Part shown: piece after piece, positions 4,936 to 36,367 of the stretch
Layout of the letters: each line of letters opens with the position of its first letter
How positions within the stretch are numbered: the first letter of the stretch is position 1
DNA from: Chiloscyllium plagiosum
Lineage: Eukaryota
NCBI RefSeq assembly: GCF_004010195.1
Contig: NC_057751.1
Coordinates: 10,987,051-11,023,417 of the forward strand
Reading direction: 5' to 3'
Length of the DNA: 36,367 bases
Position numbers and translations under genes: made by a program
The notes under the pieces: generated by a model
What the model saw: only the letters and a program-made list of their open reading frames with translations
Database searches by the model: none
Told to the model about the DNA's origin: nothing

Positions 4936-5797
4936 CTGGGAAAATGCAAATCAAACAAATGCTTTCAGCTTCACTCTTAACTGGTAACAATCACCTTGTT
5001 TCCCACAGCCTTGTCAGAACTTACAAAGAAACCCTATTATGGTCCAAATATCCAGTTCATTTGCAAATGATGCAATGTAAGGCATTTATAGGTTTACACA
5101 TGAAAACCTATGTCAAAGTAACTCCAGGCTGTTCTGATGATGAGTCACTGGACACTGCACAGACTGAGCCAGATCTGTTCAGACTCTCGTCCAATTCCCG
5201 TTTTTGTTCAAGGCAGTTCTTCATTTTGGACACTGGACTTGGCAGAGTTTGCATTAAACCCTTCTATTTAATTCAGGGCTTCATGTTGTTTGCCAGTGAT
5301 GGCATTAAGATGGACACCCAAAGGACAAAGTTTATTATAAGACTGATATAAATAGTCATGACTCCAAGAAATTTCATGCCATTGCTCAAAATATTTGGAC
5401 ATGACAAAAACAATGGTGGTCAAGTCAGGCAGTAATATGTACTAAAATACTCAAGCAGCTATGTCTACTAAAGGACCAATTATAACTCAAAACATTTCAT
5501 CTTGAGGATCCAGCTTTCTACTAGTATCAAGACATCCAACTTCTCAACAACAGCATGTATTCAGAAATGGAGACAGAACTCTGGACAAGGAACTCAAGAG
5601 AAACGGACCACAAGGTCCTCAGGAAAAGGAGTGTGCCATTCAGCTATTTCAACATGATCCACCATTCAATAAGAACATGGCTCATTTCATTATGCCCCGA
5701 ACTTCCTAATGGCAGACCCCAAAACCCTCAATTCACATCGATCCAAAACCTGTTCAACTCAAAAAATGAAAACATTTCAGATGCTGTACATCCGAAG

Positions 5798-5921
5798 CAA
5801 AAACAGAAATTGCTGTTCAACAGTTCTGAGGAAGAGTCACTTGACCTGAAAAATTGACTCTAATTTCTTTCCACAGATGCTGCTAGAGCTGCTGAGTTTT
5901 GTCAGCAATTGCTGTTTTTGT
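5798..5921 (+). mobile_element. Short PLE-derived element with 18-bp inverted ends and a decayed hammerhead-like core
   Basis: caaaaacagaaattgctg (5798-5815) / cagcaattgctgtttttg (5903-5920); internal agttCTGAGGAagagtcacttgacctGAAA..ttgact. Confidence 0.6.
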
Positions 5922-6504
5922 CTCTGTTTAGCTCAGTTCACAATGTATTCAAATTCCCAATCTCAAATGTTCTTTGTGTCAAAGTAGAACAAAAAAAAAA
6001 CAAACTCCACCAATCAAAACTTAACTTTGGTTGAACCTTTTTTGAACTGGTTCCAATGTGATTAACTGTCACCTGTAGTCAGGAGAAGGAGATTGTACAC
6101 AATTGTAAATGCGATCTGAGCAATGCCCTCTACAGTTGTATCAAGACTTAGCTACTTGTATTCTCCAGCTCTTCGCAGCAGATGCTGCAACATTCACAAG
6201 CCCAGAGGAGCTAAAACACATTTTCTGCCTGAAATTTAACTACAAACAGAGTATTCTTGTCTTGGTGCAAAAGCAGCTTCTCTGACTTCTCAGACACTTT
6301 GCCATGATGGACCTGGGTGGCCACTCATCATAAATGCTTATGCCCTATCAATATTCACAGAGTCAGAAGGAACCTCGTTAATACGTTCACAGTTCTTGAC
6401 CAATAGCATTCCAGTTGACCACAAGAGAGGTGCACAGAATCCAGTTTGATGACTCAGGACAAGACACCATCCTATCACCATCAGAACATAGAAAACCTTG
6501 GCCT

Positions 6505-6660
6505 CAGCTGATCTCTCAGGTGGACATGAAAGATCATAGCACTATTCAAAAGAAACAAACAATGCTGAGGATTTACTAAGCTTATCGATCACCCAGTGTC
6601 ACTTAAAAATATCAAGCCTTATTATTTGACAGACTTTGTCATGTGCAACATTACTCAAAT
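6505..6660 (+). mobile_element. Possible ancient Deu-domain SINE remnant
   Basis: tctctcaggtggacatgaaagatcatagcactattcaaaagaa resembles the Deu-SINE core as I recall it; very diverged. Confidence 0.35.
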
Positions 6661-7005
6661 CTGTCTCGGTTTCTTTCCATGGCCGCATGTCAAAAATTCT
6701 GTATTTGCTACAACACACCCCAGAATGTTTCAAGCTCGCTGTCAGCACAATGTAAACGCAACCCTTTGTTTTCTTTGCACAACAAATTATCACATTAACT
6801 TCTTGAGGGAGCATTTCCACCTCAGAAACACCATGCTCTTTACTGAATATTCAAACCAGTGGCACTGGACCTCAGAATGAATGCAAATTGTCACATTAAA
6901 CACTCAGTACTGTAGTGTGCGCACCCCAAGGACCAGTGCTTCGTCAATCAAACTTTCATCCGAGCTACTGAAGAAATAATTTCACTCGAGAAACTCACTC
7001 CTTAC

Positions 7006-7122
7006 CTTGGTTAAAGTCAACAAATAGAAATTGGTAACGTTGTTTTCGTGAGCATGTTTTATGCGGTTTCTGCATTCTTCTTCATCAATTAACTCACCAA
7101 CATATTCAGTTACAAATTGACC
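7006..7122 (-). CDS. NSD3: NSD3 exon, SET ([39 protein letters not shown])
   Basis: Acceptor catgcag|, donor AAG|gtaagg; 117 nt; EYVGE motif. Confidence 0.96.
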
Positions 7123-7330
7123 CTGCATGCAAGGATGACAAAAGGAGGACTTGTAAAAGGTGCTTTAAAACGTCATCGCTCTCTAAAGCCAAGTAAAATA
7201 CTGGGGTTGCTAGAAATCTGAAACAAATGCAGAATGCTGAACTTTCCCAAGCCATTTCTGTGGTTGTTCCACTCTCATGTCACGGTCATCCTTGACGAAT
7301 CTAAAGAAGGAAAGTACAAAGAGAAGTCAC

Positions 7331-7600
7331 CTTTTTAATATCTACTTTTGTGCAGAGGCCCCAGCCCCGTGCTTCTGTCCTCACAAGTTCTGTCTCAGGG
7401 TAGAGTCGTTTGCTGAAGCACTGGTTCTGGCAGCTTTCTCCAGCTGGACAGACAAGAGGATGGCACTCGTACATCAGAATCCGGTTCAGGCATTCCGAGT
7501 CCAGTCCACAAGGGTTTTCATCTGTGGGCTTACAGTTGCATCGTGGGATTTCTGACACATCAGCAACATGAATCTGCACTTTGCCAACTGGTTTGTTTGT
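7331..7600 (-). CDS. NSD3: NSD3 exon, AWS/pre-SET and start of SET ([10 protein letters not shown]...[12 protein letters not shown]...[13 protein letters not shown])
   Basis: Acceptor atactag|, donor AAG|gtgact; 270 nt, phase 0-0. Confidence 0.96.
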
Positions 7601-8652
7601 CTAGTATAGAAAAGAGATAACATTGGAATTCACTGGTGTCCACACTTCAGCATTTTACACTTTTCTTGTCATTCATAACTGAAGAGCTAAGTTCACCTCT
7701 CAGCAGCAGCTGACCAACAACTGATATTTAATATTTTAGCTGTTTTAATTAATAATGTTTGATTTATTTTTTCACTTTTCTGAATCAGTCAAGGTCAAGA
7801 CTTAATTCACTGTGATAAGTAGCAATATGTGATGAAAAAAATCAATACATTCAAGAAAAACATCGAAAATTATCTTAACAATAGTTCAAGTGGTCCAAAC
7901 CCTTGCAAATTGAAAGATCTGTTGCACAACCGTGGATTTCTGGTTTGTTCATCAAATATTGGTCCAAACTACGAGCGAACAATAATTCACCAGTGTCCTG
8001 CTCCTCATCGCTGTCAAAGCTGACAAGTGACTCTGTGACACAATTGCAATTGTTTACTCTGCTCCCAAACACTGGTGACAAAACATGTCAGGACCCAAAG
8101 ACATGTATGTCACCTGCAATGTTAGCAGGTGAACACTCCATTTATGGTGGCATGGCACTTCCCTGCAGGAATTCTAGGTGTTATCAATCACTTCAGGCCT
8201 CCAGGAATATCCCCATTGTGAACAGCAGAGAGGGGATTTTCTCATGCTCTTTCCCCAGATTCATCAGCATTCAATTCCAGTTTAATGGCTCATTTCAAAA
8301 CTGAAAGCTAGAGTAATGATCACAGAAGCAAAATAAATGTCAAGAAATAATGTGGCATACTATTGAGATATGTTTAAGTTGGATACCTATTCATTTTTCA
8401 AAGCGCAAGCTCAGTTTTGTCAAAAGAGACATTATCAGATCTTGTGAATTGTAAATATGAACTTCATTTTAAGATGAAAAATTGCAAAAGGATGGTGGAA
8501 GCAATTCCGACCTCATGCGTACATCTGAATGGGGCTACACATAATTAATTGGCTACAAAATGAAAACTCATTTTAAAAATTTATTTCAAACACCAATTCT
8601 TGAGAAAAATCATGAAACCCATGCCCACTGATGATGGAGACTTTTACCTTAC

Positions 8653-8765
8653 CTTAATAAATCTGTACGCTGGTGGCTTTCTTTCATTGCGTTCATTTTC
8701 TAGTGCTTCCTTACTTTCTTTCAATAACTTTAGCTCCTGGAAACGTTTTGCAGCTTCTTCCAGTG
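8653..8765 (-). CDS. NSD3: NSD3 exon ((A)LEEAAKRFQELKLLKESKEALENERNERKPPAYRFIK)
   Basis: Acceptor ctcacag|, donor AAG|gtaagg; 113 nt; translated by hand. Confidence 0.95.
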
Positions 8766-9229
8766 CTGTGAGTAACAAAAAAAATGTTTGGTTTGGAACA
8801 AGCTTCATCTCCCCATGCCATGCAACACCCAGTGTTCAACTTAATGGATTACGGCTGTGGGTAACTCAGTTGCATTTCACTTTTTCCTGGTAGGAGCTAA
8901 TTAACAGGAGCATTGATTGAATTTTGCAAAGCCAGTTATTAGGCAACAACAGCATCCAAATTCTCACCAGAAAATACAGGCAAAATACCATGTATTAAAA
9001 CATTGTGCACTTCAGTTCAAACAACTCAAACAGATTTCTAATAGTATTCTTTAGACAAACTCTGAACAGAGCGATCCCATTCCACCTGAGAATTGCTATG
9101 TTCTAACAGTTGTAGATTTATTTTGTTACCTTACAGCAAAGGCTGAGAGCAAGGAAACAATAAAAAGCAGCTGACAAGGAAGTGACAAAGTATAATAATC
9201 ATATTTTGCATTAGGGCAACAGAGGTTAC

Positions 9230-9438
9230 CTTTTTTGAAAATCTCGTTAATACCACCAGCTCGACCATCAGATACGTTGCCTTTGTCACCTTCTAAGTAA
9301 GGAAAGACTCTACCCTGATGCACCCAATAGTAATCATTCGATCCAAAGAAACGTACAGGGAATTCTCCTATGTGGTGCTTCATTGCTTGAATGTTAAGTG
9401 GCACAGATTTGGGATTACAAACCTCTGCTGGCCACCAC
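9230..9438 (-). CDS. NSD3: NSD3 exon, PWWP2 ([13 protein letters not shown]...[18 protein letters not shown]...IFKK)
   Basis: Acceptor gtttcag|, donor AAG|gtaacc; 209 nt, phase 2-1; RWWP motif forms across the junction. Confidence 0.96.
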
Positions 9439-10213
9439 CTGAAACAAACATCATGGTCAGAACAATTGTGAAAAATCATCGGTTATCACCATGTCAAATA
9501 TGGCCAAGCAGATAGCACATCGAGCAACAATCTCTTATTGAATCGCATTGACCAACAGAAGTGGTTTTAGAAACACGCAGCGTTCCTTTCACTAATCTAA
9601 AACTATCACTAATCCAAAGCAATACCAAGGAAGGAGACAAATTCTGGAAAAAGGCTACATGCTTTCAATCTGTCCATCCCAAGATGCCAGTTGCATTGAT
9701 CTGATTGGCTGAATCTTCACAGGAGCTGTATTTAAGTACTTGACCACCATCTTGGCCTCGTCATCCCCGCCATCCTCAACTATTCCCATAGTGTTCTTCA
9801 ATTGCAAACATCACTTCTGATCACATCAATGTCTCCCTCACCACCTAGATCCATTTCAATTTTACCTTCCTTCTGTTTCTGGGTTAAACTCTTATTGAAA
9901 TTGCTTGACTGGATTCGCCTCAACTAAGTCGATGGCAAGGCTCTCCAAGGTCCCACTGTGGCTTGAAACGTTGCCCATCACTCTATTTCCTTCATTTCCA
10001 AACATTGAGTATATGCTCTGGCACACATCTGGATTCACAATCAGAGATTTCTCGTGAGCAAGTCTAAAGGGTCTGAAATTTGAATCGTGGGCAGACCTAG
10101 AAATGCTGCAACCTGCATTTTATTGAACATAGGTCCTTGTCCTGAAGCAATAATCTGTTGTCCATGCACAGATGCCATATGAACCTCTACCAAGTGTGGC
10201 ATGGCGGCTCAAA

Positions 10214-10577
10214 GGGCAGCATGGTGGCTCAGTGGTAGGGCCGGCACAGTGGCTAGCAGTGCTGCCTCACAGTGCCAGAGACCTGGGTTTGATTCCAGCT
10301 TTGGGCGACTGCCTGTGTAGAGTTTACACATTCTCTGTGTCTGCATGGGATTCCTCCAGATGCTCCGGTTTCCTCCCACAGTCCAAAGATGTGCAGGTCA
10401 GGTGAAATAGCCATGCTAAATTGCCCCATAGTGTTCAGGGATGTGTCTGCTCGATGCATTAGTTACGGGAAATGTAGAGCAATAGAGCTAAGAGAATGGA
10501 TCTGGAATACTCTTCTGAGGGTCGGTGTGCACTTGTTGGGCCAAATGGCCTGTTTCCACACTGTAGAGATTCTATGA
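10214..10577 (+). mobile_element. HE1-like tRNA-derived V-SINE, near full length
   Basis: Pol III A box tggctcagtgg (10225-10235), B-box-like gggtttgattcc (10285-10296), V-domain core tgctccggtttcctcccacagtccaaagatgtgcagg, and CR1-like tail ggcctgtttccacactgta. Confidence 0.85.
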
Positions 10578-10852
10578 ACCATTGACCAGTGCCATCATTT
10601 TATATTTATGTTGAACTGACTTTGTTGAACTGAAGCTTCTGGCTTAACATGAAGACCTGTTTTGAAATGATGCAAGTCAATAACATGGACCTAACCTATC
10701 AATACTATTCATTCCACACCATTCTGTGGTCTATCAAAGCAGAAACCGATGAAATCCAACTCCGCATTGTCCACACTCAGCCAGACAGGTATGACATGTA
10801 TGGAATCAAGATTGTAAGGATTGCACGTACAACTCCAAAACAATCCAGCATA

Positions 10853-10990
10853 TAGTCATAGAGATGTACAGCATAGAAACAGACCCTTTGGACCAACCCA
10901 TCCATGCCGACCAGATATCCCAACCCGACCTAGTCCCACCTGCCAGCACCTGGCCCATATTCCTCCAAACCCTTCCTATTCATATACCCA
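10853..10990 (-). mobile_element. CR1 3' end fragment
   Basis: Reverse complement of 225..362. Confidence 0.85.
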
Positions 10991-11502
10991 CTTCACTTTT
11001 ACTTATTCATAGTATTTGACATGATATTTTCATGTTCTTATTTAGGACTACAATTTTTACATGAGTTCAGAGCTCTATCAGAATTATAACCGTTAAACCC
11101 TTCCAACTCACTGCACAAGGGCGAAAGGGTAATGCGTTTCAGTCCCTCACCCTGACAATTTTTCAAAAAAATGCTGACTTAATGCACACCATCACAAAAT
11201 GCACCAAGTAATTAAGCAAGATGGCAATGTGACTAGCTGTTTACGCTGTTGCTTGCTGCTTCTCACATCTCGACTGTAAGCTCGCTAAGAATTTGGACAT
11301 GGACAGCAACTACTAACAAAAATCACTTCTCAACACTTGTGATTTTAGTCCAACATTTTTCGTGGTGGATCATAATCACATTTCAGCATAATTGTTGCCA
11401 ACACATTCAGTAAAATAGTATTTCTGATCCAAAGCCTGTAACCTTTTTGTTTAAGACATCTGTTGTGAAATGTTTTCATCACTTTGAAACAAAATGACTT
11501 GC

Positions 11503-11659
11503 CTGTATATACCGAGCTTGACCCAGACTATTTCCTTGTATCGTGATTTCTTGCCAGCCTTGCAGTCATTACAATACCAGTTCCCTTCTGGCATTTCAAT
11601 CGTCAGGCATTCAGGATGGAAGGATGCTGGACAGGATTCACAGCACAACAGGTGACCAC
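11503..11659 (-). CDS. NSD3: NSD3 exon, rest of PHD4 and start of PWWP2 ([18 protein letters not shown]...IVWVKLGIY(R))
   Basis: Acceptor tgttcag|; non-canonical donor CAG|gcaagt; 157 nt, phase 1-2. Confidence 0.95.
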
Positions 11660-14532
11660 CTGAACACAAACGGAAACATACTTTTTTTTTTAAGTGTCTT
11701 GCATAAATGCACTCAACTGCTGCTGCTTCCTTTCACGCTCACCACTTTAAAGTCACAGAAACGTGGGCATTTCAAGGTCAATTGAGGCAATGCTTATTGA
11801 GTAACACTGATCACTACAATTCAGCATCATGCAGATACACAATTCCCCACTGCAGAGAACTATCTGCACCATACCCAGAACAACTGAGCAATGTCCCATA
11901 TTAAACTCCAAAGTCCAATGTTTTGAGTGTTACAGATTGAACATAAACACAGTTCAAGTGTCTTAGTGTTTTAATTTAAACCATTAATTGTCATTTTTAA
12001 ACTCTAAGTTGTGAGCTATTCTGTTTGAAGGATCTGAAGAGTTTCTTTTTTATTAGTATCTAACTGTGTTGTTGCTTCATGAACCAGAGAGTTACAGTAA
12101 TAGGTACCACAGTGGGCAGCAGTTTGCACATTAATCCTCCAACCCAAAAGTCAAGCAACACAGTTGAGCACCTGACTACACTAAGTTTGAACTGGTGTGC
12201 ATAAAACCAATAGCACGAAATAAATGGTCAGCTGCAGCAATGTGTCATAGACAGAACGCTCATCACAGTAGAAACATGAGAGGAAAAAATTAGAGCTGAG
12301 AAATACAAAGCCATTTTGCCAGAGCTGAAGAGGGAAGTTGCTCAGTTCACATTTGTTAACGTGAATCTCAATGAATACACGAATCTGCCCAGGAGAGGGA
12401 ATGGAAGCAATCATCAATGTTGACCAGCCAGTAGCAGTCGGTGATTTCCCCAAGAATAATGATGTGGATTGCAGCATGATAACGGTTAGTTTGTCCTGAA
12501 GCAATGTGTATCCTTTCAAAGACAACCTCATCCCTGGAGTTATTACTCCAGATCTGCAATATCCCCCCGAACCGACATATACACTGTGCTCAGATCAAAG
12601 CTGATGAAGATGAATGAAAACACATGATGCAATGACAGACAGCAGCTGTGAGATAAAACATGCTCAAGAACTGTTTCATTGCTGGCAATTCCCACACCCT
12701 TTTACCTTGAATTACATGCATTAAACATTGCAAAGACTCGTCAGTTGTGAAGGGGGGCAGGTTGGAAATTTTAGGCTGTGCATGAAATTCCTGGCATTGC
12801 TTTGGCTACATCCGACAATTCCTGCATGATATTCAATTCTCTTGCAATCAACAGAACCAAACAAGACACAGAATGTGGAGCAGGCAGCTGATGCAATACA
12901 GTTTGTTCCTCGTGATCAGCCAATACAAATTTCTACCCCCAGTTCTTGGTACAATCATGTTTTCTTGTTAAAAAATGGGAGTCGCAAAAGAAAGCATACT
13001 CCTCTGATATCCCACAATATGTAGCTTGCCAGCAAACCCAGTTATCCATCTAACATGTAAAAGCGTGGATGCAATATTCTCCAGTCAGCAAGATAGAGAG
13101 GTGAAGCAGAAACGTGGAATAAAAACATGAAGCAGGGAGAACAGTTGCCCTTTCACAGAAGCATGTTAAGCAGCATTCTGTTCATGCTAAGCAACACTAG
13201 GGCTCAAAATAACTGCAAGGCTTCCCTCCCTTAAGACATAATTTTACCCAAAATTACAAACTGAATACTCAGATCAAATCAAACACAGCACAAATTGTCA
13301 CTGTTTTCCATGTGCTGCTATGTAATTAAAACAACTTGATTTCTAATTACATGTTTTTTTACATCAGAAGTGTAACTGGATTGTTTGTCCCGGTGAAATT
13401 GGACATTTGTGCGAACCATGACTAAATCCAGACAGTCACAAAGAGGTGACCGACCCAAAGAGGGCAAAGAGAAACTGGACAACTGTGATCATTCCCAATG
13501 TCAAAGACAAATTACAAAAGTAAATGATTTTACAGCAACAGGGATATGATCACATTACTAGCCACTTCGAGTTGCAGACAACTCTGGAGGGTAATATCAC
13601 AAAGACTGAGAAGCAGAGCAGCACAGCATCAGAAACAACTAACATCAGTAACCAGAGTCTCTGAAATCATTTCTGCATGAGCAAGGTATACCCCAGGCCC
13701 ATTTCTCTGTCTGAGACTACGTGTTAGAGGGTGAAATGTAAAGCCCAAAAGTCAATGCAAAGTCTAAATCAAGGGTTCAGGACAGATAATGGTATGGAAC
13801 AACCACAATTCAGTATTTAATCAGAAAATAAAGAAAAAAAACACATATTTTCATGTTTCACTCAGACAAGATACATCTTGCCTTACTTATTTTCAAATCC
13901 AGACAATTAATGTCTTATCTTTGAAATGAACTTATCCAAAAATCAAATTAGCAAATGGCCAGAAGTGAACATGCAGTGATTTCTTTCACAGTCTGAGAAT
14001 ATCTTCTGTTGAAAACCAATAGCATGCAATTTCATCTGTGGAACATGGAGATTCCTTAATAAGACACTTTTCCCAATTCTAACATATGTGTATTGTTCCA
14101 CAAAAGAAATCGCAATTCTCAAACTACCTCAAATGGAGCACTGGTAAATGATGATATTATCCAAGCAAACTCAGTGTCCAGAAGTGGGGGGAAAAATACC
14201 TGTAATGTCAAAGAAAACGTGTCCAATGACAATTGCACCACTTAAGTCATGAAATGCATGACTCGGGATCAAAAGTTGACCTTGTAATTATTTCAAGCCC
14301 AGGCTTACTCAATCTCTCTTAAATTTGTGATCATTAAGTAGGTTCGTCAAAAAAAAAGTGAAAAAATTCAGTTTACACACTTTCATGAACAAGATCACAC
14401 AGGATTTTAAAAAGCCACAGATTTAGCAGATGCAGGGGGTAGGGAGAAAAGCATGGTAGGTGGGTGTGGAGGGGGGTAGGGGGAAGAAAATTCAAGCACA
14501 TATGGTTCCGGAGATAAACTGGTTTTTATTAC

Positions 14533-14685
14533 CTTTCCCACATTTCTTTACTGTAGTTGACGGTGAGGGAGGAATCATAGGTTTTTTCAACAACTCAGCC
14601 GAACGATTTGACTCGCTCAGGAGGTAGTGCGACTTATATGTATAAGAACTGATAAGGGTTTCGGATTGGTCTTGCTCAATCAACC
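14533..14685 (-). CDS. NSD3: NSD3-specific exon inserted within PHD4 (LIEQDQSETLISSYTYKSHYLLSESNRSAELLKKPMIPPSPSTTVKKCGK); probable cassette exon
   Basis: Acceptor catgtag|, donor AAG|gtaata; 153 nt, symmetric phase 1-1; resembles human GLIVQDHSDPMFSSYAYKSHYLLNESNRAEL. Confidence 0.92.
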
Positions 14686-14892
14686 CTACATGAAACAAAT
14701 AAAACACATGAGGTGCAATGAAAAGACCCATGATTCCCTCCGAAAAAAAATCTGAAAAACATGAATTTAATCTTGAAGATTTTTTTCTCAAAAAAAGGGA
14801 AAAAAAATGCTCTAAAAAAGACTGAACTAACGCATGCTCCATTTTAAGCTGATCCATCACAGAAACTGAAGGCAGGGGGAAAGTTGTCTTAC

Positions 14893-15072
14893 CTCTTGCA
14901 CAGATAAAGCACCAGCTTACATTGACTTGGAGAGACGCGCGACTGCCTTTCTTCAAGCTGGAATGGTTGTTGCAGATGATGCTTTGGGATGAAAGGACAA
15001 GGCTGCCAGCTGCAATACAACTCTCCCCCGTGTGATAAGCCACAGGACACCGCAAACAGCGCAGCATGCGAC
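14893..15072 (-). CDS. NSD3: NSD3 exon, PHD3 and start of PHD4 (RMLRCLRCPVAYH...VNVSWCFICAR)
   Basis: Acceptor tggccag|, donor GAG|gtaaga; 180 nt, phase 1-1. Confidence 0.95.
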
Positions 15073-15639
15073 CTGGCCATATTTAAAGAAAATACAATTC
15101 TTTTTCAAAAGGACTTGCCGATTGTTTGGTGACATAGAAGAGCAATAAAACAATAAGTCTGTCCCGAGCAAATTTCACAAAGATCATCACATTGCAAGCC
15201 TGTCAACAGATACACTTAATGTCAAACACTGACTTTCAGTGTTTATTCATCAGCTAAATTTCACATCAAGTACATGCAATAGTAGACTTACAGGATTTCC
15301 AAACTATGTTGCGCTTATTTGCCCCAACTCAGAAATCATAGCCACGTATTGGCAAGTTATTTAAATAGCTTTTTGATAGATGGCTGAAGCACAGTGGGAT
15401 AAGGGGAAAAGTGAAAAGAGTCCACATGCGATCTTGCTTGCATCATGTATGGGACACGTGAACAACAATCTGGGTTGAGTGTCTCCTTCCTGACATTCCT
15501 ATCTCCTCTCACTAACCTTTACGTCAGAGGCCACTCTTGCGAATGTTGGCATATTTCAACTCCACTGTGGAGCCACTCAACCCCTGAAGCCCCTGGCACC
15601 GAACCAGTCTACCCACACTGGACCACTGTGACCAAACGT

Positions 15640-18201: not shown

Positions 18202-18291
18202 AATATATACTGATGGCTTGGAAGAAGAAAGTGAACGTACTATAGGTAAATTTGCAGAAGACACAAGAACAAGTAGGAAGGTTGATGAAGT

Positions 18292-24507: not shown

Positions 24508-25765
24508 AGCCTTTGACAGCAAGGCCACATCTGACTGTGTGTGGCATCAACAAGCCCTAGCAAAACTGGAATTAATGGGAATCAGGGGGCAGACTCTCCA
24601 CTGGTTCAAGTCATATCTGACACATAGGAAGATGGTCATGGTTGCTGGAGCTCTGTTATCTCAGGTCCACTCCATCTCTGAAGGAGTTCCTGGTCACAAC
24701 CGTTTTCAGCTACTTCGGCAATGACATTCCCTCCATGTGAGGTCAGACATGGAGATGTTTACCAATATCTTGACAATGTTCAGCACCATTTACAACTCCT
24801 CAGATACCTAAAACAGTCCGTGCTTAAATGCAACAAGATCCATACAATATCCAGGACAAGTGGTATTTAAAATTCATGCCATACAAATGCCAGGCAAAGC
24901 CTATCTCCAATAAAAAAAATCAAACTATTGTCCCTTGATGTTCAATAGTATTACCATCTCTGAACCTCCCATTGTCAACATTTTTGCTGTTACTGTTGAC
25001 CCAAACCTCATCTGGACTCGTCACATAAATATAGTAGCAACAAAAGCAACTCAGAGGCATGGAACACTGTAGTGAGTAACTCACCTCCTGACACCCCAAA
25101 GCCTGTCCACCATCTGCAAGGCACAAGTCAGCAGTGGGATGGAATACTCCCCACTTACCTCGATGAGTGCAGCCCCAACAACACTCAAGCTCAACACCAT
25201 CAAGGACAAAGCAGTCCACTGGATTGGCACCACATCCCACTCCCCCCCACCACTGTCACTCAGTAGCAGCACTGTGCACCCTCTGCAAGACACCCTACAG
25301 AAATTCCCCAAAGATCCTTAGACAGCACTTCCCAAACCTACAACCACGTCCATCGAGAAGGACAAGGGCAGCAGATACACGGGAACCGCCTGCAAGTTTC
25401 CCTCCAAGCCACTCACCATCCTGATGGAAATATATCACCATTCCCTAACTGTTCCTGGGTCAAAATCCTGGAATTCTCACTTCAAGGGCATTGTGAGTCT
25501 ACCAACAGCACATGGACTGCAGAGGTTAATGAAGGCAGCTCACCACCACATCCACAAGGGCAACTTCAAGGCAGGCAATAACTGCTGGCCAGTCCACATC
25601 CCATCAGTGAATTGAAAAAAAATTCAAAAGCCTCCAAAGACAGGAATGCTTTAGACATTAAAGTCTTTGAAGACAATGGATTTGGTATCTTGTGCACAAT
25701 TTCAGAGCCCTGATGGCCTCAGGATTTTTATCCTTAAGTCAAACCTTTCTTCTGCATGTTTTGGA

Positions 25766-25926
25766 GGTGTCGGTATTAGACTGGGGTGTACAAAGTTAAA
25801 TATCACACAACACTAGGTTATAGTCCAACAGGCTTCTTTGGAAGCACTAGCTTTCGGAGCAACGCTCCTTCAGCACTCCGAAAGCTAGTGCTTCCAAAGA
25901 AGCCTGTTGGACTATAACCTGGTGTT
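25766..25926. mobile_element. Fold-back PLE-derived element with a 51-bp near-perfect inverted repeat
   Basis: Arms 25809-25859 and 25876-25926, one mismatch, 16-nt spacer. Confidence 0.8.
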
Positions 25927-25938
25927 AAAATCAACGAA

Positions 25939-26215
25939 GTAAAAACAATGACTGCAGATGCTGGAAACCAGATTCTGGATCAGTGGTGCTGGAAGAGCAC
26001 AGCAGTTCAGACAGCATTCAGGAGCAGCGAAATCGACGTTTTGGGCAAAAGCCCTTCATCAGGAATAAAGGCAGAGAGCCTGAAGTGTGGAGAGATAAGC
26101 TAGGGGAGGGTGGGGGTGGGGAGAAAGTAGCATAGAGTACAATAGGTGAGTGGGGGAGGGGATGAAGGTGATAGGTCAGGGAGGAGAGGGTGGAATGGAT
26201 AGGTGGAAAAGGAGT
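25939..26215 (-). mobile_element. PLE 3' region and terminal repeat (same subfamily as 24187..24313)
   Basis: Near match to 24185..24315, followed by the purine-rich tract seen next to the other PLE ends; core CTGATGAAGGGCttttGCCCAAAACGTC. Confidence 0.78.
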
Positions 26216-28349
26216 TGCATGATTTTTAATTTTTCTTTTGCAAGCCGTTCTGAACAGACAAAACATTTGGCCACAAGGTGGCACCAAACCTAGCCTTGAA
26301 AGCAGTCAGAAAATGTGGAAGGTGCAGAAACTCTGACAACCATTTAACAAATTGCATCAACCGAGAGTTAGACTATCTTTCTTCACTTGAATTCCCACAA
26401 TCCCAGGCAATGCAAGAGGCCAAAAACATCCAATTAAAACAGCATGGTATCCTCCACAGTGCATGGTTTTGATGCAGCTTTTGTGCCACATCAGGGTGAA
26501 GGATTGCGACATCAACAATGCAAGTGAAGTTTTCCACTCAATGTCAAACTCCTGTACTCTGAGAATTAGGGAAACAAAAGAGTTAGGAGAGAGAAAATAA
26601 ACCAAGGAAAATGTAAAAAGTTGTAATTAAAATAAAACAAAAGAACAAAAAGCTGGAGGACTAACAGCGCACATGCAGAATAGTTAATGCTAAGTACCTG
26701 AAAGGTTGACGCAGTATTTACAGTGTCATGGAGTCACAGAGGTGTACAATACAGAAAGACACCATTTTGTGAAAACCATTATTACACTTTCAACAGCAAG
26801 CTTCATTTGAGCGAACTGCAAACATACAGCTCCTTCATACCATTCAGGGCATTTGAATAGCAACCTAAGAAAGCAATGGTGACAAAGGCAGGCAACCTTT
26901 GCAACAGTAACTTTTCAATGACCCAATCTGAATCAAGCACACACCATTTCGATTAAAACTGCTTTCACACTTGCACTTAAAACTCAGCAGATATTTTGAC
27001 AGCATTTCTTTTGGCCCAATTGTGGGACTTGTGAAAGGAGAAAGAAAAATGGAAAGAAGATGCCATCATCATTCTTTCCTTGTTGATTACATCATTCCAC
27101 ATCCTGCCCACAGCCCAAGACCTACACTCTGTTGTAAACCCACAAAGACAAAAGACTCAGATCAAATGAATCGACCGGAATGTACTCATTCACCAAGTTT
27201 CAAACTTACACTAGCACTAATTAAAACCCTTAGGCAGGGACAGCTTTCCGATAACGCTGCCAACTTTTTTGGCTCCAATTGCATACATTTGTTTCATGAA
27301 CACAAAAAGCCAAGTATCATTACAGCATGGTTTTAACCAGTTCATTGATGGATGATCCAAATAACACATCTTCTTAATAACCGTTAGGACTTCTAACAGA
27401 TCGTAATCAAGCTGGAACTGGTGGCCAAGTATTACAATCCAACATGACAGCACTAAAATATATGGTACACTTCAATGAAAAGTCTGCAACTTTCATTTAT
27501 CAAGTACATCGGATGAGAGACATTGGAAACTTATGAAGGGAATAAGACCACAAGATTTCTCAGTTTTTAAGAAACAGCAATAAACTTGATGAGTCTATGT
27601 TAGGACAGGAGTATCATCTACAATACATGCACATCTTTTTGCCAACATGTGTAAAAAGACATGTGGTAAATATGGTTAAATAGGCTGTGATCAAATACTC
27701 TACTGTACACATTAAAAAGCTAAAATAATCAAGACACTTCTTAGTTTCTCTGACTTCTCAATCAGTTTTCAACAGAGAACCTGTCATTCAGTTGCCTTGC
27801 CAGCAATACATTTAAACATGGAATGTACATCTGCATCTCCTGATCACAGATTGACTTGACCGACTGCTTTGGATTTCTTCAGCAATTGGCCATGACCTAC
27901 CGAAACCGTGACATGCTGAAACACTTGCAATAGGCCTAGCCTCTATTGCCCAGCAGAGGTGAATACAGCCTTCTCACAAAGTCTTGGAGCTGCACGCACT
28001 TGACATGTTACAATTCACAGGTTGCTGGCAGCCCCAGGACAACTGGAAACAACAGGAGGAAATGGCTGTCAGCACAACAGTTATTGAATTAGCAATCCAG
28101 AGGCTCAGACTAACTAAGGCCATGGTTTAAAAACGAATCATCACAACCCGTGGAATTTCAATAGACAAGAACAAAGAAAACGGGAATGGGCCTTTCAGCC
28201 CATCAAGCCTGCTCCTGGGTGAGCGAACATTTCAAATCCTTTTTATCTATCGCATCCCTGTGACCCTCCACACCTGATCAGAAATCTATCCCTCTCTAAC
28301 TAAAACATGCTGCAAGATTGAGTATCCACAGCACTCTGATGCAAAGGCT

Positions 28350-28775
28350 GACTGGACCTCCCAGTCACCACCCATTTTAATTCCTCTTCCCACTCCCTTT
28401 CCGACATGACCATCTTTGGCCTCCTCCATTGCCACAACAAACCAAACTGCGAATTGGAAGGACCTCACCGCATCTTCCACCTGGACAGCCCATAGGCCAG
28501 AGGACTCAACACTGAGTTCTCCAATTTCCAATAACCTCCCTTCCCAGCCCCACACGCTCCTTCCTGCCACCAACCAGATTCATTCCTCCTATTGACCAAC
28601 AGGGTCATACCCTCGACCTGTCTTCACCTATCCTGTCTTCACCTATCCCCACTTCACCACCCTGCCCCCACCACTCCCTTTATCTGCAGCTCCATCTACA
28701 ACCACCTCCAGTCCTGAAGAAGGAAGGGTTACACTCGCAACATTGACTTCTCCATCTCCTGATGGTGCCTGGCTT
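28350..28775 (+). mobile_element. Penelope-like element 3' fragment: endonuclease C-terminus, C-rich UTR and decayed hammerhead-like motif
   Basis: 28355..28534 reads DLPVTTHFNSSSHSLSDMTIFGLLHC...RIFHLDSP*ARGLNTEFSNFQ* (resembles a PLE GIY-YIG C-terminus, P.GLN motif); agtcCTGAAGAAGG...gact at 28710-28748. Confidence 0.75.
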
Positions 28776-28889
28776 ACGGTTACTTTGAACGGTTTATTCT
28801 TGCATATCTCAACAATTTGACCCAGGAAACTAGTTACCGATGGGTGGCTCAATCTTGTCTCAATGACAATTCACAAGATAACAACTAAT

Positions 28890-29160
28890 GAAAATGTCTC
28901 AGGGTGTTTCACAGAACAGATGTAAAGCAAAATCTGACACCATGGTATAAAAGGAAATGTCAGGGCAGATCAGCAAAACCTTCAGCGAAGTAATAAATGA
29001 TGTAGATTTTGAGGAGTGATTTAAAGATAACCAGAGCAGGGAAATTAAGTGGTCAAATGCGGGCATTTCAGAGTCGAGGGCCTTGGCAAGACATTAACTG
29101 TAAAGAAACTGACATCCAGGATGCTCAAGATGTCCAACTAGAGCAGTGCAGATACTTTGG
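28890..29160 (-). mobile_element. Possible degenerate L2 LINE 3' fragment
   Basis: Resemblance, from memory only, to reverse-oriented L2 tails of cartilaginous fish. Confidence 0.4.
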
Positions 29161-29332
29161 GAGGTCAGGGGAGGGGGAGGGGGGGTGGGGGGGCTGGAGG
29201 AAATTATATACATACAGACCAATGGATTCTAAGCTTTTTTCAAACACTGTTCCTTGTTTAGAGAGTTGATCTGAGCTTCTCAAAGAGGTGACTTGTTGTC
29301 TATTATTAGTTTTGCTCCCATCATGCTCCTAC

Positions 29333-29460
29333 CTCACTCAGCAATCCTCTAGCATCAGAATCATTGATTTCTCTGCAACCCGGACTTGTCATCTCCACAT
29401 CGGTAGATGCCCGGCTACGTTTTTTCAATGGCTTGCATGAATCTGAAAGTTCGCTGGCAC
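29333..29460 (-). CDS. NSD3: NSD3 exon ((G)ASELSDSCKPLKKRSRASTDVEMTSPGCREINDSDARGLLSE)
   Basis: Acceptor gcttttag|, donor GAG|gtagga; 128 nt; strong peptide match. Confidence 0.93.
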
Positions 29461-29650
29461 CTAAAAGCAAAACAGGGAGGCTGTTTGGCTTCAGTCTTTT
29501 CACAGGACATTCTGTTACACAGCAAAATGAAAGCAGACCCAAGTCACGAAACAAAGCAATTCATGTTTGCAAGATGCCTCAAAAATTCTTATGGCAAATG
29601 CTCAGCATCAAGGATCACAACAGTATAACATGTCGCTGGTAGGACCTTAC

Positions 29651-29741
29651 CTGGCAGAGTTGAACTCATTGTTCCATGCGCATGGGGTAATGATGTTCCT
29701 CTCTGTGGGCCAGTCATCTCAGTTGTTGGAACAGTTTCCAC
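29651..29741 (-). CDS. NSD3: NSD3 exon (VETVPTTEMTGPQRGTSLPHAHGTMSSTLP)
   Basis: Acceptor ttcgcag|, donor CAG|gtaagg; 91 nt, phase 0 to 1; begins with VETVP as in NSD3. Confidence 0.85.
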
Positions 29742-31397
29742 CTGCGAACCAAAACACAAATTATAAATCCAAATTAACAGTGAATCCAAAGATGAATAAC
29801 TCTATGTTGGCTGTGGTATGACGGCACACTTCACTCATTCCAGGTACTTCCAGTTACTATATCTGTGAACTCTGTAAGACTCTTATTGGAATTCAAATAA
29901 TCACAGTGACAGCAACACTACTGTGTTCACACAAATCAACTGGATTTCTGAATTAACTACTTTTACATTCACTGCGTCTCCTTTCAAATGGAATAGCGTT
30001 TCTAAAGTGAGTTGTAAAATAAACATACATTGCTTTTTCACAATAAGGTGATTGAATTAATTTAGTGAATCTCCAGTCTTTGGTCAAATTCCCTGGCCTC
30101 TGCCAAAACAGCATGGACTAAAATATAATTTTTCTCTCCACAACAGTGACTTGAATTAATGTGCAGTTTACTCATTATTCTTTCATGTACTGTTTAACAG
30201 TTGTACTGATGGGATGGTTTTCTTCAACTCCTGGACATCCACTATTCTGTTTCCTATTCTTCATACATACAACAAGAGAGGAGAATGAATTTTTAAGCAT
30301 TGGCAGTAAAATCTTTATGTGGTTTTTTTCGTTGAAATATTGTATTCATGTCATTTAACTTTTCAAATAAAAACTGAAAACCCTATTTGTCTCCCTTTTC
30401 CTTTATGTTAAAGGGTGTGACAGCAGATGACAGGAATTTCACTTCACATCAGTTCAAATTATTTTGTGAAAGTGAAGCTCAATTCTGTAACAACTTGAGC
30501 TCCTCATAGGCATTTAATGCAGATCCAGTACCCAAGCCTAGCAGGCTGAAAAACAGTTCTCCTTACAAGAAGTCATTTGTCTCTCTGGGTCATGCGCAAT
30601 CTTAACATAATTTACCTGGGGAGCTCAAATAACATGCATTCAGTTGCTGTCCTGGATTGTGCATTTCATGATCTACCATTCTGAGTATGAGTTGGATTGA
30701 ATCATTCACTGAAAATACATGATTTAAACACAGACAGCAATCGACCCAAGATTTGCATAAAGCTACTCTGGTAGTCACAATCCTGGAAAATCCACCACGA
30801 CAATTAACAGCAGACACAAAAACATTCTGGTTTTGTTTTTATATTCAGTATATTGGAGTCAATGAACAAACAAAACCCCTTTTTCAATCAAGCAAGGAAC
30901 AGGAACAGGGAATTTTGCAAAGGAAAGCCTGGTCATGGAAGAATAAACAGATTGTGAAGTTGAGTGGAGTAAGAGAAAGTCTCTTGGATGAAGACAGTAT
31001 AGTATTGCTGAGTGTGGAGGAGCCATAACTTATGAGATGGGAGGAATATGAGACAAAGGGACCTGATGAACTGAACTGATTAAACTACAAAATTGGTATT
31101 CCAACTGGGAAGTGAGAGGTCACTCACATTGAATCCAATCAACAAAAATCCTACCATTCAAGAGTGAGAGACTTAGAGTTATAGAACAATAACATCATTC
31201 TGACTTCAATGTGTACAAACTAACCGGTATGACATGGTGGCATAGGAAACCAAGAACAATTTGGAAGGAGAATGAACTGCAGTGTCAAGAGGCTTAAAAT
31301 TCACAAGTGACTAAGGGAAATGTATACCAAAACAGTATAGACAGTTTCAGTAGAATAACATCAAGAACCAGACAACAGAACCCAGTACAAGGAAGGG

Positions 31398-32212
31398 AAA
31401 AAGTGAGGATTGCAGATGCTGAAAAGTCACAGTTGATAAAGCATGGCACAGGACAAAACACAGCAAGTCAGGCAGCATCCAAGGAGCACGAAAGAGTCAA
31501 CATTTCGGGCAATCCTTCCTCAGGCCTGGGGAGGGGGAACAGGGCTGAGAGATAAATTGTGTGTTGGGGTGGGGCTAGGGGAAAGGTAGGTGAGATGGCA
31601 ATAGGTGGGCGAAGGTTGGAGTGATGTTGATAAGTCAGAGCGGAGGGTGGAGCGGATAGGTGGGAGGGAAGATGGGCAGGTAGATCTACCCTCTTGACGA
31701 CCTGAGTCGGAGGGTTAGATGTAGGATGTGGTGGGGGGAGGGGAGATTTGAAAATTGGTGAATTCAATGTTTATATTGTGTGGTTGTAGGCTGAGGATGT
31801 GGAGTTCCTCCTCCAGTTTTCAGGGGAAAAAAAAAACATCCACAAACTGGAGAAGGAACGTCTCATCTTCCATCTGGGGAGGCACCAACCACATGGCATC
31901 AACACCGAATTCACCAATTTCCAAATCTCCCCTGCACCCACCACATCTCAGATCCAACTCTGACTCAGATCCACCCTCTTGACCTACCTGGCCATCTTCC
32001 TTCCCACCTATCCACTCAACATTTCCCACTGACCTATCAACATCACCTATGACCTTCGCCCACCTACCTTTCCCCGAGCACATCCCCATGCCACCCAATT
32101 TACCTCTCAGGCCTGTTCCCCCTGCCCATGTCCAAAACATTGATTCTCTCTTGCTCCTCAGATACTACCTGACCTGCTGTGCTTTTTCCAGCGCCACGCT
32201 TTACCAACTCTT
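31398..32212. mobile_element. Inverted pair of PLE 3' ends (about 800-bp imperfect palindrome)
   Basis: Left arm (minus) 31398..~31820 mirrors right arm (plus) ~31841..32212; right arm encodes HKLEKERLIFHLGRHQPHGINTEFTNFQI. Confidence 0.78.
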
Positions 32213-32454
32213 CAGTGCAAGTAAGGCCAACCTAATAATTTTTCTACTTTTGCATTTCCATGGCTTATTAACGATCCAACAGCCATATTAAACTTAAAAG
32301 CATATTCAATAAAATTGATCAAGTTGAGCTACTCCTTTTTATTGGAACCAAAAGGCATAAAATTGGAGCTGGGAAATTGAGCACAAGATCACAAGTTTCA
32401 CATAAATGCCAGTGCGAATTTTATTCCTTCTCTCCCCCTCAAATGAGATAGTGT

Positions 32455-32635
32455 TGGACTCTAGGCCTTTGAGGTTTTCAAGAATAAGGTTCACAGATTT
32501 TCATCAGTGAAGTGCAACTGGGGCCATGGATCAAAGAGAAGGAAATGGAGTTGAGGGACAGATAAGCTGGTGACTTAATTGAATGATAGAATTGAGTCGA
32601 GGGGATGAATGGACTACTTCTGTTCCCTTGGTCTT
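32455..32635 (+). mobile_element. Degenerate CR1 3' UTR fragment
   Basis: ttaattgaatg...gtcgaggggatgaatggactacttctgttcc resembles the CR1 tails at 18960-19030 and 19580-19640. Confidence 0.55.
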
Positions 32636-32679
32636 CCCTGACCCACTAATAACCAAACCTCCATGGTCCCAGGATGTAC

Positions 32680-32771
32680 CTGTTCTTTTCGCATTTTCTT
32701 TTTCGGTACAACTTCAGTGACTTTCTCCGATTCAGAGCGACTTCGAACTGATCTTCTTTGTTGTTTCCTTT
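32680..32771 (-). CDS. NSD3: NSD3 exon ((E)RKQQRRSVRSRSESEKVTEVVPKKKMRKEQ)
   Basis: Acceptor ccttcag|, donor CAG|gtacat; 92 nt; close match to the NSD3 basic linker. Confidence 0.93.
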
Positions 32772-33521
32772 CTGAAGGATGCGAAAGACAATTTTAAACC
32801 GAAAAAAAAAACAGAAACATGAAAGGAAATATCAAAAGGCACAGAATGCATCAGGGAGAAATTAGGTGGATCTGGAATCCTTAATGGCTGACGCAGAAGG
32901 AAGCCCCACTTGTCTTAAAATGCTCAGACTGTTCTTGCCTCACCTCCCCCATCTTTATCGAGCTGTCTAATAATTTCTCTTTAACCCCCCCACCCCCAAC
33001 CTTAAATAAATATTAGACACCGACAGTTAAATTAAATAATCACGAGATTGAGCAGCAAACAAAAACCTCTTTTACAAAAACTCTCAAATCAAGGTTCACA
33101 AAGAGCAGGAAAAAGCCTGACTTGGATCAGCCCCAAACTTTCTCACAAAGATCAGAATGGAATTTTATCAGTTGGCTTCATTCCGTAATCTGAGAGTTGC
33201 CTGGCCAAAACTTGTGACATAACAAAATGAAAAACTTCAAGCTGCTGCATTTATGCTCACATTTCCCAGTGTAGCGAATCTGCAAAATCAACAACTTTAT
33301 GGGGTCATGCCTGCAATGGCTCCATATCAGCACAAGCAGGCACAGAATACATGCAAACATACAGATGAAAGTCAGTTATTCTGCATGTGCCATCCAGTTA
33401 ACTTGCAGAGACAGCTCAGGAGATCAGAAAGCAAGTCAAGTGTCAGCCTGCATTCCAGAGGAACATGAAGTGGAAAACAATGCAAGGCATTTTCATGAAG
33501 GGGACAAAGACAATTGTTTAC

Positions 33522-33660
33522 CTGAGGAAATCAGGTGTGCTTCTCCACGCACAGAGAACTGAACCTCTGCGTCTCGCTTCTCACTTCGCAGACTTAAAGG
33601 GGTGATGAGAACTTCCTTAACTTCTCTTTGCGATGGCTCTGCCTTAATACTTGCTCCCTT
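33522..33660 (-). CDS. NSD3: NSD3 exon, linker (KGASIKAEPSQREVKEVLITPLSLRSEKRDAEVQFSVRGEAHLISS)
   Basis: Acceptor ttcctag|, donor CAG|gtaaac; 139 nt, open. Phase 1 end fits the next exon. Only weak similarity to human KGIGNKTEISVRGQDRLIIST. Start could be 33657 (tandem TAG AAG). Confidence 0.75.
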
Positions 33661-35124
33661 CTAGGAATAAAACAATTTCATTAGCCACACAAAATCAATA
33701 TCAACTAGCTGCAAGTTTTAGCTCCCTGAGGCGCCCCAAACCCAAAAGGAAGTCAAGAGTAAGATTGAAACAAAGACTTTTTTATTGATGGGAATAAACA
33801 GCAGGGTGAAAATTAAATTCTTTTCAATGTGCTGGTCACAAAAATTGCAAAGTATTACTTATTTCAAAACAATCCAGAGCCACTTGCAATTTTGACAAAC
33901 CACAAGTTGATAAAATGTCCTAAGGAGATCAACTGCAAGGAAGATAATTATTTCTATTAAGAGAAAACCTAACTTCTTCAAGAAACACATGCCGAGAACC
34001 ATAGATGCCTTTTTTGTGTGTTTTGCAAATTGTAAATTAAATATGAAGCCAGGTATAAAACTGAAATCACAAATGGCATGTTTTAAACCAAATGAGACGG
34101 GGAATGGGAGATGTCGGATAGCAACTACTTTTTAATCCACAGACCTGGTTTAATTTAACTTGGATACAGTCATATATTTAAAGCTTCAATGGTACATTTC
34201 TTCACCCTCTCTCAACCATTCAAACAACCTCACCCAAAATCTCTCATTTTACTGTCTTGTCCCCTTGTTGACTTTCAATCTTCTTCCAGCCAAGATGGAA
34301 TTCTCTGCTGCCATTTTAAATCAGCTAAACTGAATAGTTGATTTTAGTTTAGACGATCCAGACATTAGTCTGACTGAAAGAATGCCAAGTGTCAAGTCTT
34401 CGCGTTTGGAATATTTCCAAAAGAGTCAAGTACACTTTACAAACATTCCAAAACAACAGAAAACACTCATGATTTTTAAAAGCAGAAATGAAATATTGAA
34501 CAGGAATCTTAATATGCCAATCATCACCCATGACTTGAAGCTGGAAGGCAAGAGAGAAAACATAGGATTTCTCTTTATCAAAATGCTAATTTAAAGATCT
34601 CTGAATTACATTCTTGAATGTCCAGGAATTACTTGAATCAAAATAGGAATGTGTGCACCCTATAGAAAAATACAAGTTCTATTCAGTTTCAGAAAATATT
34701 TCTAACTCAACGCCTCAGCGCTGTGGATTACCATTGCACAAATATGCACAGTTTAAGGCTAAAAGCAATCAGCATCTCCAGTCAAGAGGTGTATCGCATC
34801 ATTGTGCTCGGCCGTTACGTGAACATTTGATATTTGGTTTCCAATAGAAAATTTATGTATGAATTAGGAACAGGAGTAGGCCAATTTCTGCAATTCTGCA
34901 TTACACAGTCAAATGTTATGCAAATACTGATGCACAATTGATTTCAGAAATTTGAAGCGTAGTTTACACCACAACCTGATGTCTGCCAAACGAACAGCTA
35001 AGAATTCAAAATTCCAAATCTCAGGAACAATGGAGACAGAAAAATTCCACAATTTTCTCATTTTAAATGAGGATGTATAAATAGGATTGGAACTGTAGGC
35101 CCTCAGAACGTCATCGGTCAATAA

Positions 35125-36187
35125 GACCATAAGGCCATGAGATACAGGAGCAGCATTTGGCCATTCAGCCCATCGAGTCTGTTTGGCCATTTGATCTTGG
35201 CTGATGTTTCTTAGCCCCATCCTCCTGCCTTCTCCCCATAACCCTTGACCCCCTCACTCATCAAAAACCTACCAATCTCAGTCTGAAATATACTCCATGA
35301 CTTTGGTCTGCACACCCCTCTGCAGCAATGAGTCCCACAGATTCCCCACTCTCTGGCTGATGAGATGGAATTTCTTGAGCCAAAGTTCTCAAGGGTCATA
35401 CCTTCTCATGGAGGCTGTTCCCCTAGTTCCTAGTCTCTCATACTCATGGAAATATCCTCTCCACGTTCACTCTATCCAAGCCTCACAGTATCCTGCAAGT
35501 TTCAGTCAGATTCCCCTTCATCCTTTTGAGCTCCATCAAGTACAGACTCATAGTCCTCAACCACTTCTCACATGACAAGCCTTTTATCCCCGGGTCCTTC
35601 TTGCGACCCTCCTCTGGACCTACTCCAACACCAGTATAACCTTCCTAGGATATGGGGCCCATAACGGTTCACAATATTCTAAATGTGGTCTGACCAAAGT
35701 CTTATGCAACCTCAGCAGTACACTTCTGCTCTAATATCTTAGCCCTCTCTAAATGAATGCCTGCTTAATCGCCAACTGAACCTGCATGTCAACCTGAACA
35801 TAAGACTCGCGAGTCCCTTGCGCTTCCGATTTCTGAAGCCTTTTAAGGTGAAGAAAACAATCTTCACCTGTGTTCTTTCTACCAAAATATATCACTTCAC
35901 ACTTTGCCATACTGTCACTTCTTTGCCCCTCACCTTGCATATCCAGGTCCTTCTGCAGCTTCCCTGCCTCCTCACCACTATCTGTCCCTCCTCTGCAAAC
36001 TCAGCAACATTGCCCTCAGTTCCTTCATCCAGATCATTAATACATCATGTGAAGAGCTGTGGTCCCAATACTGATGCATGCAGAACTTCACTCATCTTCG
36101 GTTGCCATTCTGAAAAAGACCATTTAATCGCTTCTGCCAGTCTGCCAATCCCTACCAGTGTCAGTACCTTGCCTCTAACACCATTCA
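35125..36187 (-). mobile_element. CR1 LINE relic
   Basis: Minus-strand SVLGPQLFT and KCEVIYFGRKN remnants; reverse-oriented CR1 3' tail. Confidence 0.82.
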
Positions 36188-36367
36188 GAGAAAGTGAGGA
36201 CTGCAGGTGCTGGAGATCAAAGCTGAAAAATGTGTTGCTGGAAAAGCGCAGCAGGTCAGGCAGCATCCAAGGAGCAGGAGAATCGACGTTTCGGGCATAA
36301 GCCCTTCTTCAGGAATGAGGAGGGTGTGCCAAGCAGGCTAAGATAAAAGGTAGGGAGGAGGGACTTG
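36188..36367 (-). mobile_element. Young-looking PLE terminal repeat, runs off the window end
   Basis: Same family as 20866..20988 and 18027..18201; CpGs intact. Confidence 0.8.
36281..36316 (-). ncRNA. Minimal type I hammerhead-ribozyme-like motif (PLE-associated)
   Basis: Minus strand: attc CTGAAGA A GGGC ttat GCCC GAA ACGT C|gatt. GUC cleavage triplet; weak helix I. Confidence 0.55.

Follow-up and report, generated by a model that had tools for sequence, protein, structure and literature searches.

The window analysed here is a stretch of 36,367 nucleotides from Chiloscyllium plagiosum (contig NC_057751.1, positions 10,987,051 to 11,023,417), which carries on its minus strand part of an NSD3-like histone methyltransferase gene and, dispersed among its exons, a series of hammerhead-ribozyme-like motifs. 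We put the probability at roughly 0.7 that these motifs are mostly decayed terminal repeats of several families of Penelope-like elements (PLEs) with a known hammerhead, and that the copies of 90-130 bases arose by run-off from the 5' end of uncut, capped element RNA. The ribozyme class, its extra nucleotide, and the link to PLEs are already published; the fresh point is where the copies start.

Hammerhead motifs in the window

An earlier note, made from the sequence alone, had placed motifs at eleven sites, and all of their coordinates and strands proved correct on re-check. The sites are fragments of four repeat families, here called A to D (Table 1). Their decay had been recognized as well: a complete core is kept by just two of the eleven (36281-36316 and 24278-24313). 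The copy at 18051-18086 has an intact core with damaged helices I and III, and the remaining eight have lost G12, A13, A15.1, stem II, the NUH cleavage site, or half of the core. Throughout, positions are numbered from C3 of CUGANGA as +1, which puts the predicted cut of family A after +28.

A structure descriptor (core, helix II of at least 4 bp, helix I of at least 2 bp, 0-2 extra bases permitted after the core) matched the window twice, where shuffled sequence gave a mean of 0.02. Elsewhere it matched 30 times in 580 kb: 14 matches fell in 195 kb of flanking DNA and 16 in the 385 kb of scattered DNA, with shuffles averaging 0 and 0.1. Furthermore, a covariance model was built from 10 real, hand-picked copies in families A, B, and C, of which the window supplied two; family D was omitted because the aligner moved it by one column. 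The model recovered nine of the ten motifs in the note's main list at E<0.05, two of which are training members. The tenth, at 5131, scored a nonsignificant 7.3 bits (E 6.6); aligned to family B with the GAAAC half deleted it scored 52, the best of 1000 shuffles reaching 31.5. The broken AGCU copy near 25848 matches a family with 12,463 exact genomic copies. Additional partial copies lie at about 18091(+), 24342(-), 24395(+), 25876(+), and 32134(+). An Rfam search of the window returned zero hammerhead matches, even at E<=10, and its MIR807 match at 31741-31931 was rejected as only a PLE fold-back.

Table 1. Features of the window (positions are those of the window; EN, endonuclease; UTR, untranslated region)
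Feature	Positions	Strand	Details and evidence
NSD3-like histone methyltransferase (host gene)	4789..33662	-	extends upstream of the window
Family B relic	5131..5208	+	GAAAC half of ribozyme deleted; family alignment
Family B stub	5821..5928	+	GAGUC/GACUC-type stem II; starts at about -5; helix III palindrome gone
Head-to-head family A pair	18028..18204	- and +	minus copy core 18051-18086, plus copy from 18091; bounded by 12-bp direct repeat at 18015-18026 and 18206-18217
Family B stub	18288..18415	+	strongly decayed, G12 and NUH gone; covariance model E 0.033
Family A short unit	20860..20987	-	starts at -3; mutations in A15.1 and helix III; covariance model
Family A2 short unit	24185..24313	-	complete hammerhead (24278 copy), spans -4 to about +125; flanked by 7-bp direct repeat CCCACTT, likely a target-site duplication; descriptor, covariance model
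Head-to-head family A stub pair	24319-24384, 24395-24505	-, +	no intact core, folds back; covariance model
Family D pair (AGCU helix III)	25754..25926		minus copy cut off within core, inverted partner 25876-25926; inverted repeat 51-bp, 98%
Family A2 terminus	25939..26140	-	about 78 nt of upstream 3' UTR; G12 mutated; covariance model
Family C 5'-truncated PLE	28354..28771	+	EN C-terminal remnant 28361-28528 (tblastn E 1e-5), 3' UTR, decayed hammerhead 28710-28748
Old fold-back PLE insertion	31394..32192	- and +	minus copy with decayed hammerhead 31495-31526 and EN remnant 31724-31813; inverted plus copy with EN remnant 31790-31951 (tblastn E 2e-7 and 0.006)
Family A PLE terminus	36189..36367	-	complete minimal hammerhead, long tail; C3 at 36312, predicted cut after 36285; descriptor; covariance model 59 bits, training member

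The last entry of Table 1 reaches the window edge beside an assembly gap, with an inverted copy on the other side. In the neighboring locus (L065:1-1523) this gap measures about 1.4 kb and an inverted family A copy lies beyond it, so a larger head-to-head insertion has the 36281 copy as one of its arms. Four fold-back pairs lie within the window.

Ribozyme class and parent element

The earlier assignment to the minimal type I hammerheads of PLEs, with a palindromic helix III, is upheld. The CUGANGA and GAAA boxes with a NUH site are complete in 2 window copies and in at least 77,000 genomic copies. The palindromic 15.1-16.1 stretch is present and no intramolecular helix III can form; among 184 locus copies the palindrome reads ACGU in 120 and AGCU in 18, and 39 others are single CpG-type changes. 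One extra base follows the core in 32/32 descriptor matches and 184/184 locus copies, though zero was permitted. The extra A that the earlier note had pointed out is a published hallmark of PLE minimal hammerheads and not a novelty. The proposed covariation between subfamilies was borne out as well, with 4/8 pairs changing on both sides and 92% of cells pairing as against 14-48% when the alignment was slid; taken by itself, the number of pairs that change is no higher than in shuffles (122/500), and the set of 10 hand-picked copies from 3 families was not phylogeny-corrected.

These features agree with the published description of PLE minimal hammerhead ribozymes (Cervera and De la Pena 2014, PMC4209133), of which part of the text was accessible: a type I core, an extra nucleotide between A9 and G10.1, a G10.1-C11.1 pair, a palindromic 15.2-16.2 stretch with no helix III of its own, and several covarying families per genome, mostly as lone or inverted truncated copies. 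Unlike those described there, helix II is shorter here, at 4-5 bp in families A to D. Copy number is also much greater, with at least 77,000 exact copies as opposed to about 4,000 minimal hammerheads in coelacanth and 9,000 in Xenopus. The accessible part of that survey names no cartilaginous fish and describes no pile-up of 5' ends. Literature outside most subscription journals and Repbase yielded no shark description and no fixed 5' edge.

Several variations of the motif were seen along the way. Helix I of family A mostly contains a U-U mismatch (3' strand GAUU in 109/137, GAAU in 10), which gives the most abundant subfamily a weaker ribozyme fold. Two more hammerhead families with an extra U, a longer helix II, and an internal bulge occur at L057, L062, L085, and L138 and are absent from the window. 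Loop II of family A holds an ATG from which a frame of 37 codons or more runs through the whole tail (MPETSILLLL...; window 36269-36299 minus, L006:1504-1671), and loop II variants preserve NTG at this position. In Anolis and rotifer PLEs the open reading frame (ORF) begins inside the pseudo-long terminal repeat (pLTR), and by analogy the loop II ATG may be the start codon of the element. The end of the long family A tail (about 36189-36200, minus) is branch-point-like and pyrimidine-rich, often followed by TAG, and so resembles a 3' splice site; introns near the pLTR are known in PLEs.

The parent element was traced in the 3.56-Gb genome, where a reverse transcriptase (RT) query gives 59,641 first-look candidates. 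The nearest genomic copies of the 36281 terminus have PLE endonuclease (EN) and RT sequence upstream, and the hammerhead sits behind RT/EN frames in many RT loci. RT is joined to a GIY-YIG domain at the C terminus in a single frame in L049 and L032. The L049 frame of 893 codons matches RVT_1 (E 6e-8) and GIY-YIG (E 3.5e-4; 21 bits, slightly below the Pfam cut-off of 22.6), has a CX4CXXC linker between the two (protein P0001), and is followed by a hammerhead 160 nt downstream of its stop codon. Upstream of two window copies, 28710 and 31495, remnants of the endonuclease persist, and relatives of the former carry longer ones. A Pfam search of two frameshifted fragments and a sequence search of the Protein Data Bank with the PLE protein gave no match. 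A CX2-5CxxC linker marks Neptune or Nematis elements (PMC8557442, accessible in part). Judged by its domains and linker, the main family is probably a Neptune-type EN+ PLE, the linker being found in Nematis also. Like the Neptune EN+ elements described in that source it has a single frame with RT, linker, and C-terminal GIY-YIG, 5' truncation, an inverted partner, and an optional 30-40 bp tail; unlike them, it did not yield a full-length copy flanked by both pLTRs here. Some PLE frames contain internal tandem duplications (40 codons in L049:3500-4030, 129 nt in L041:4042-4687), which are either template slippage or assembly artefacts.

Exact-pattern counts reached 64,742 for family A (ACGU), 12,463 for family D (AGCU), and 6 for the old family B, with 0 for reversed controls. 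By blast, copies of all families number 89 in the 385 kb of scattered DNA, or about 800,000 genome-wide by rough extrapolation.

Start positions of the short copies

Family A copies anchored on their tails have a sharp 5' edge: 39 of 126 resolved copies begin at -5 to -3, as against 4 at -20 to -6 (14 of the 140 copies were dropped at gaps or locus edges). The edge occurs in non-inverted (21) as well as inverted (18) copies. Most of the tail-anchored set came from exact matches close to one end of contig 1 (98 in a similar set). In unselected DNA, three pooled samples (n=77) gave 22 starts at -6 to -1, 6 at -50 to -7, 16 at +1 to +10, and 18 long copies. Family B stubs, which read AGTT at this place, begin near -8 to -1 by blast. 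At the other side, the 3' ends of family A fall into two clusters, +86 to +92 and +124 to +127, about 36-40 nt apart. A flank word of at least 8 nt is common to both sides in 21/41 non-inverted short copies versus 1.1% of control pairs, which makes each of these an insertion of its own, and target-site duplications or head-to-head partners are frequent among the short copies. RNA reads on a long copy show the same borders, the commonest left loose end being -4 (70 reads) and the right ends +81/+86 and +125/+126. The reads come from both strands, and 94% continue into unrelated flanks, as expected for passengers in host transcripts.

A copy that spans +28 must derive from uncut RNA. Starts at the cut site itself (+28 to +30) account for 1/77 in unselected DNA and for 3/184 among family A copies, where 3.4 are expected, a sample size at which a few percent would be possible. 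Read ends did not pile up in one single-cell run, a library ill suited to show cleavage ends. The peak at -6 to -1 would thus best fit RT running off the 5' end of a capped, uncleaved RNA. The base before the edge is in keeping with this: genome-wide, among copies that differ from the element at the two preceding bases, a -4 start follows G 1580 times versus 1094 times for A and T together, about a fourfold enrichment over the ratio of about 0.36 expected from composition. In full-length LINE-1 insertions an extra G marks cap copying, according to the part of PMC11702581 that was accessible, and the same reading of the G found here is plausible, though not proven.

From these data the following mechanism is proposed. 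An internal promoter would start the RNA at the A at -4, the first base of helix I, which has initiator-like surroundings in families A, B, and C; an internal, TATA-less promoter lies in the pLTR of Drosophila Penelope (PMC2377424, accessible in part). The protein of the element would then prime reverse transcription internally at either of two tail sites. Priming in the 5' repeat would run off the capped end after 90-130 nt, adding the extra G, and priming in the 3' repeat would give the ordinary 5'-truncated copies with endonuclease remnants. That hundreds of thousands of 90-130-base insertions are such "strong-stop" copies of the 5' end of capped, uncleaved PLE RNA is, in our estimate, somewhat better than an even bet. 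Support comes from the Poseidon element PAc of Anolis carolinensis (Frangieh et al. 2024, PMC11167929, accessible in part), for which internal priming in vitro, with the tail lying between two RT starts, has been described. As here, about 35-40 nt separate the two starts, which are downstream of the hammerhead, the inserted copies come from uncleaved RNA, and RNA sequencing gave no ends at the cut site; uncleaved RNA was the dominant substrate, and cleavage was protein-assisted. PAc belongs to a different clade, and the accessible text reports neither run-off copies with a fixed 5' edge nor an extra G.

A number of observations weigh against the run-off reading. In the second scattered sample, 4/29 copies start at -5 to -1 by crude extension, a weak peak, which is clearer by local aligner (7/34 at -6 to -1). 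Family D lacks a sharp 5' peak, with 1/48 copies at -5 to -3. Because helix I needs an A at -4 as well, the resemblance of that base to an initiator is not an independent observation. The G before the edge adjoins an inverted partner in 13/20 inspected cases (10/20 for A or T), and it also matches target DNA in 4/5 inspected cases with a clear duplication; taken together, target match and inverted partners mean that the G may partly reflect microhomology. Finally, no upstream pLTR joined to an ORF was met in 30 N-terminal loci or 111 long tails, the assemblies at those N-terminal loci ending in GC-rich repeats and gaps. As no full-length element was found, the existence of the 5' repeat and the position of its start site are assumptions.

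It has to be weighed whether all copies are plain 5'-truncated 3' ends, with the -4 edge produced not by an RNA 5' end but by RT stalling or by DNA-level events such as an endonuclease preference for ATT or microhomology joining. The -4 site does read ATT, which is the most frequent cutting motif of the Anolis PLE protein (PMC11167929), several junctions have 2-3 nt of microhomology, and 5'-truncated copies with inverted partners are what PLEs normally leave (PMC8557442). Against this stand the sharp wall with few ends immediately upstream, the G excess before the edge, and the family B stubs, which read AGTT yet start near -8 to -1; moreover, stalling RT would be expected to leave ends on the 3' side of stem II rather than behind helix I. 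We regard this explanation as improbable.

Alternatively, the short units could form a separate non-autonomous family resembling short interspersed nuclear elements (SINEs), with an internal promoter of its own and mobilized in trans by the PLE protein. Such a family would account for the fixed boundaries and target-site duplications and for short copies outnumbering long ones, and none of 16 loci of the GAGUC/GACUC family (B) has shared upstream coding sequence. Rotifer pLTRs are sufficient for mobilization in trans (PMC3846280, accessible in part), and a preprint, likewise accessible in part, treats animal retrozymes as non-autonomous PLE derivatives (bioRxiv 10.64898/2026.07.22.740005). According to the same preprint these non-LTR (long terminal repeat) retrozymes have, as here, a type I hammerhead from PLE pLTRs, and hammerhead tandem repeats occur in the only chondrichthyan that it covered. 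A retrozyme, however, consists of units in tandem, each with its own hammerhead. The copies in the window are single or head-to-head, and no such array with an intact hammerhead per unit, which retrozymes need, was seen there. There is also no common sequence past +127. At N7, in loop II, and at +37 to +44, the variants are shared: family A short and long copies carry them in similar proportions, and no variant private to short copies was seen at three marker sites in 93 short versus 29 long copies (the short ones including 40 loci chosen for a -4 start), which favors a common autonomous source. A SINE-like origin, as suggested in the earlier note, is judged unlikely, with the old family B as a possible exception. 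The data do not show the repeats to be non-autonomous derivatives: the same terminus ends RT/EN-coding elements, two window copies have EN remnants, and variants are common to short and long copies.

For work on the role of PLE hammerheads, this genome provides at least 77,000 sequence-perfect copies together with junctions recorded at population scale. Should the run-off reading be true, the start site and the two priming sites would be written in the genome, together with the fact that the ribozyme leaves the productive template uncut. It would also provide germ-line confirmation of the in vitro lizard result, internal priming on uncut RNA, fix the start site to one base, and explain why ribozyme stubs litter vertebrate introns without harm to genes like NSD3.

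The NSD3 gene and other features

The host gene is represented by a SET exon near 4789-4941, a PWWP2 exon near 9228-9443, a candidate exon near 7301-7600, and six minus-strand exons (16886-17011, 19991-20121, 29333-29458, 29649-29739, 32678-32771, and 33522-33662) taken from spliced transcript contigs of two runs; a PWWP exon lies further upstream, in locus L066. In a structure-database search the best match for two exons was NSD3, narrowly ahead of NSD2. The intron placement given in the earlier note agrees with the spliced contigs, which put eight sites within introns or upstream of the last mapped exon; the 5131 and 5822 sites lie between the SET exon and the candidate exon near 7301-7600, outside read coverage.

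Nothing ties the hammerhead motifs to NSD3. The window has 14 PLE copies where 8.4 are expected, a mild excess (p 0.048), with 51 in the 195 kb of flanks; density is near the genome average and the strands are even (8 sense, 6 antisense). That the intronic hammerheads are functional cleavage elements regulating NSD3 pre-mRNA is very improbable. Both complete copies do lie on the sense strand, but they are just 2/11, the nearest intact copies are 12 kb apart and form no tandem pair, the helix I pairing probability is <0.16 in the monomer, copy density and strand ratio are ordinary, and spliced mRNA from two runs crosses these introns. Cleavage is unlikely given lone copies without helix III, a weak monomer helix I, and four fold-back hairpins. 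PLE minimal hammerheads have low activity, seen only in multimers (PMC4209133). According to published work, cutting requires a dimer or the protein of the element, and the prediction is therefore that lone or fold-back intronic copies are silent passengers in NSD3 pre-mRNA. A contig end that adjoins an adapter lies at 36284, a base beyond the predicted cut; as a single record it was given no weight.

Among the minor features of the window, stubs of different PLE families are clustered: at 25754-26140 a family A2 tail directly adjoins the family D fold-back, and mixed-family clusters also occur at 18028-18415 and 24185-24505. Decayed fragments of a long interspersed nuclear element at 850-2450 and 23378-25600 are related copies about 22.9 kb apart, with a weak RVT_1 match (E 0.14). 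A SINE-like repeat, presumably of the HE1 type by name, is found at 17572-17717 and 10388-10565, and more than 200 RNA reads leave it at 17710/17717 and continue as TAATC repeats and poly(A).

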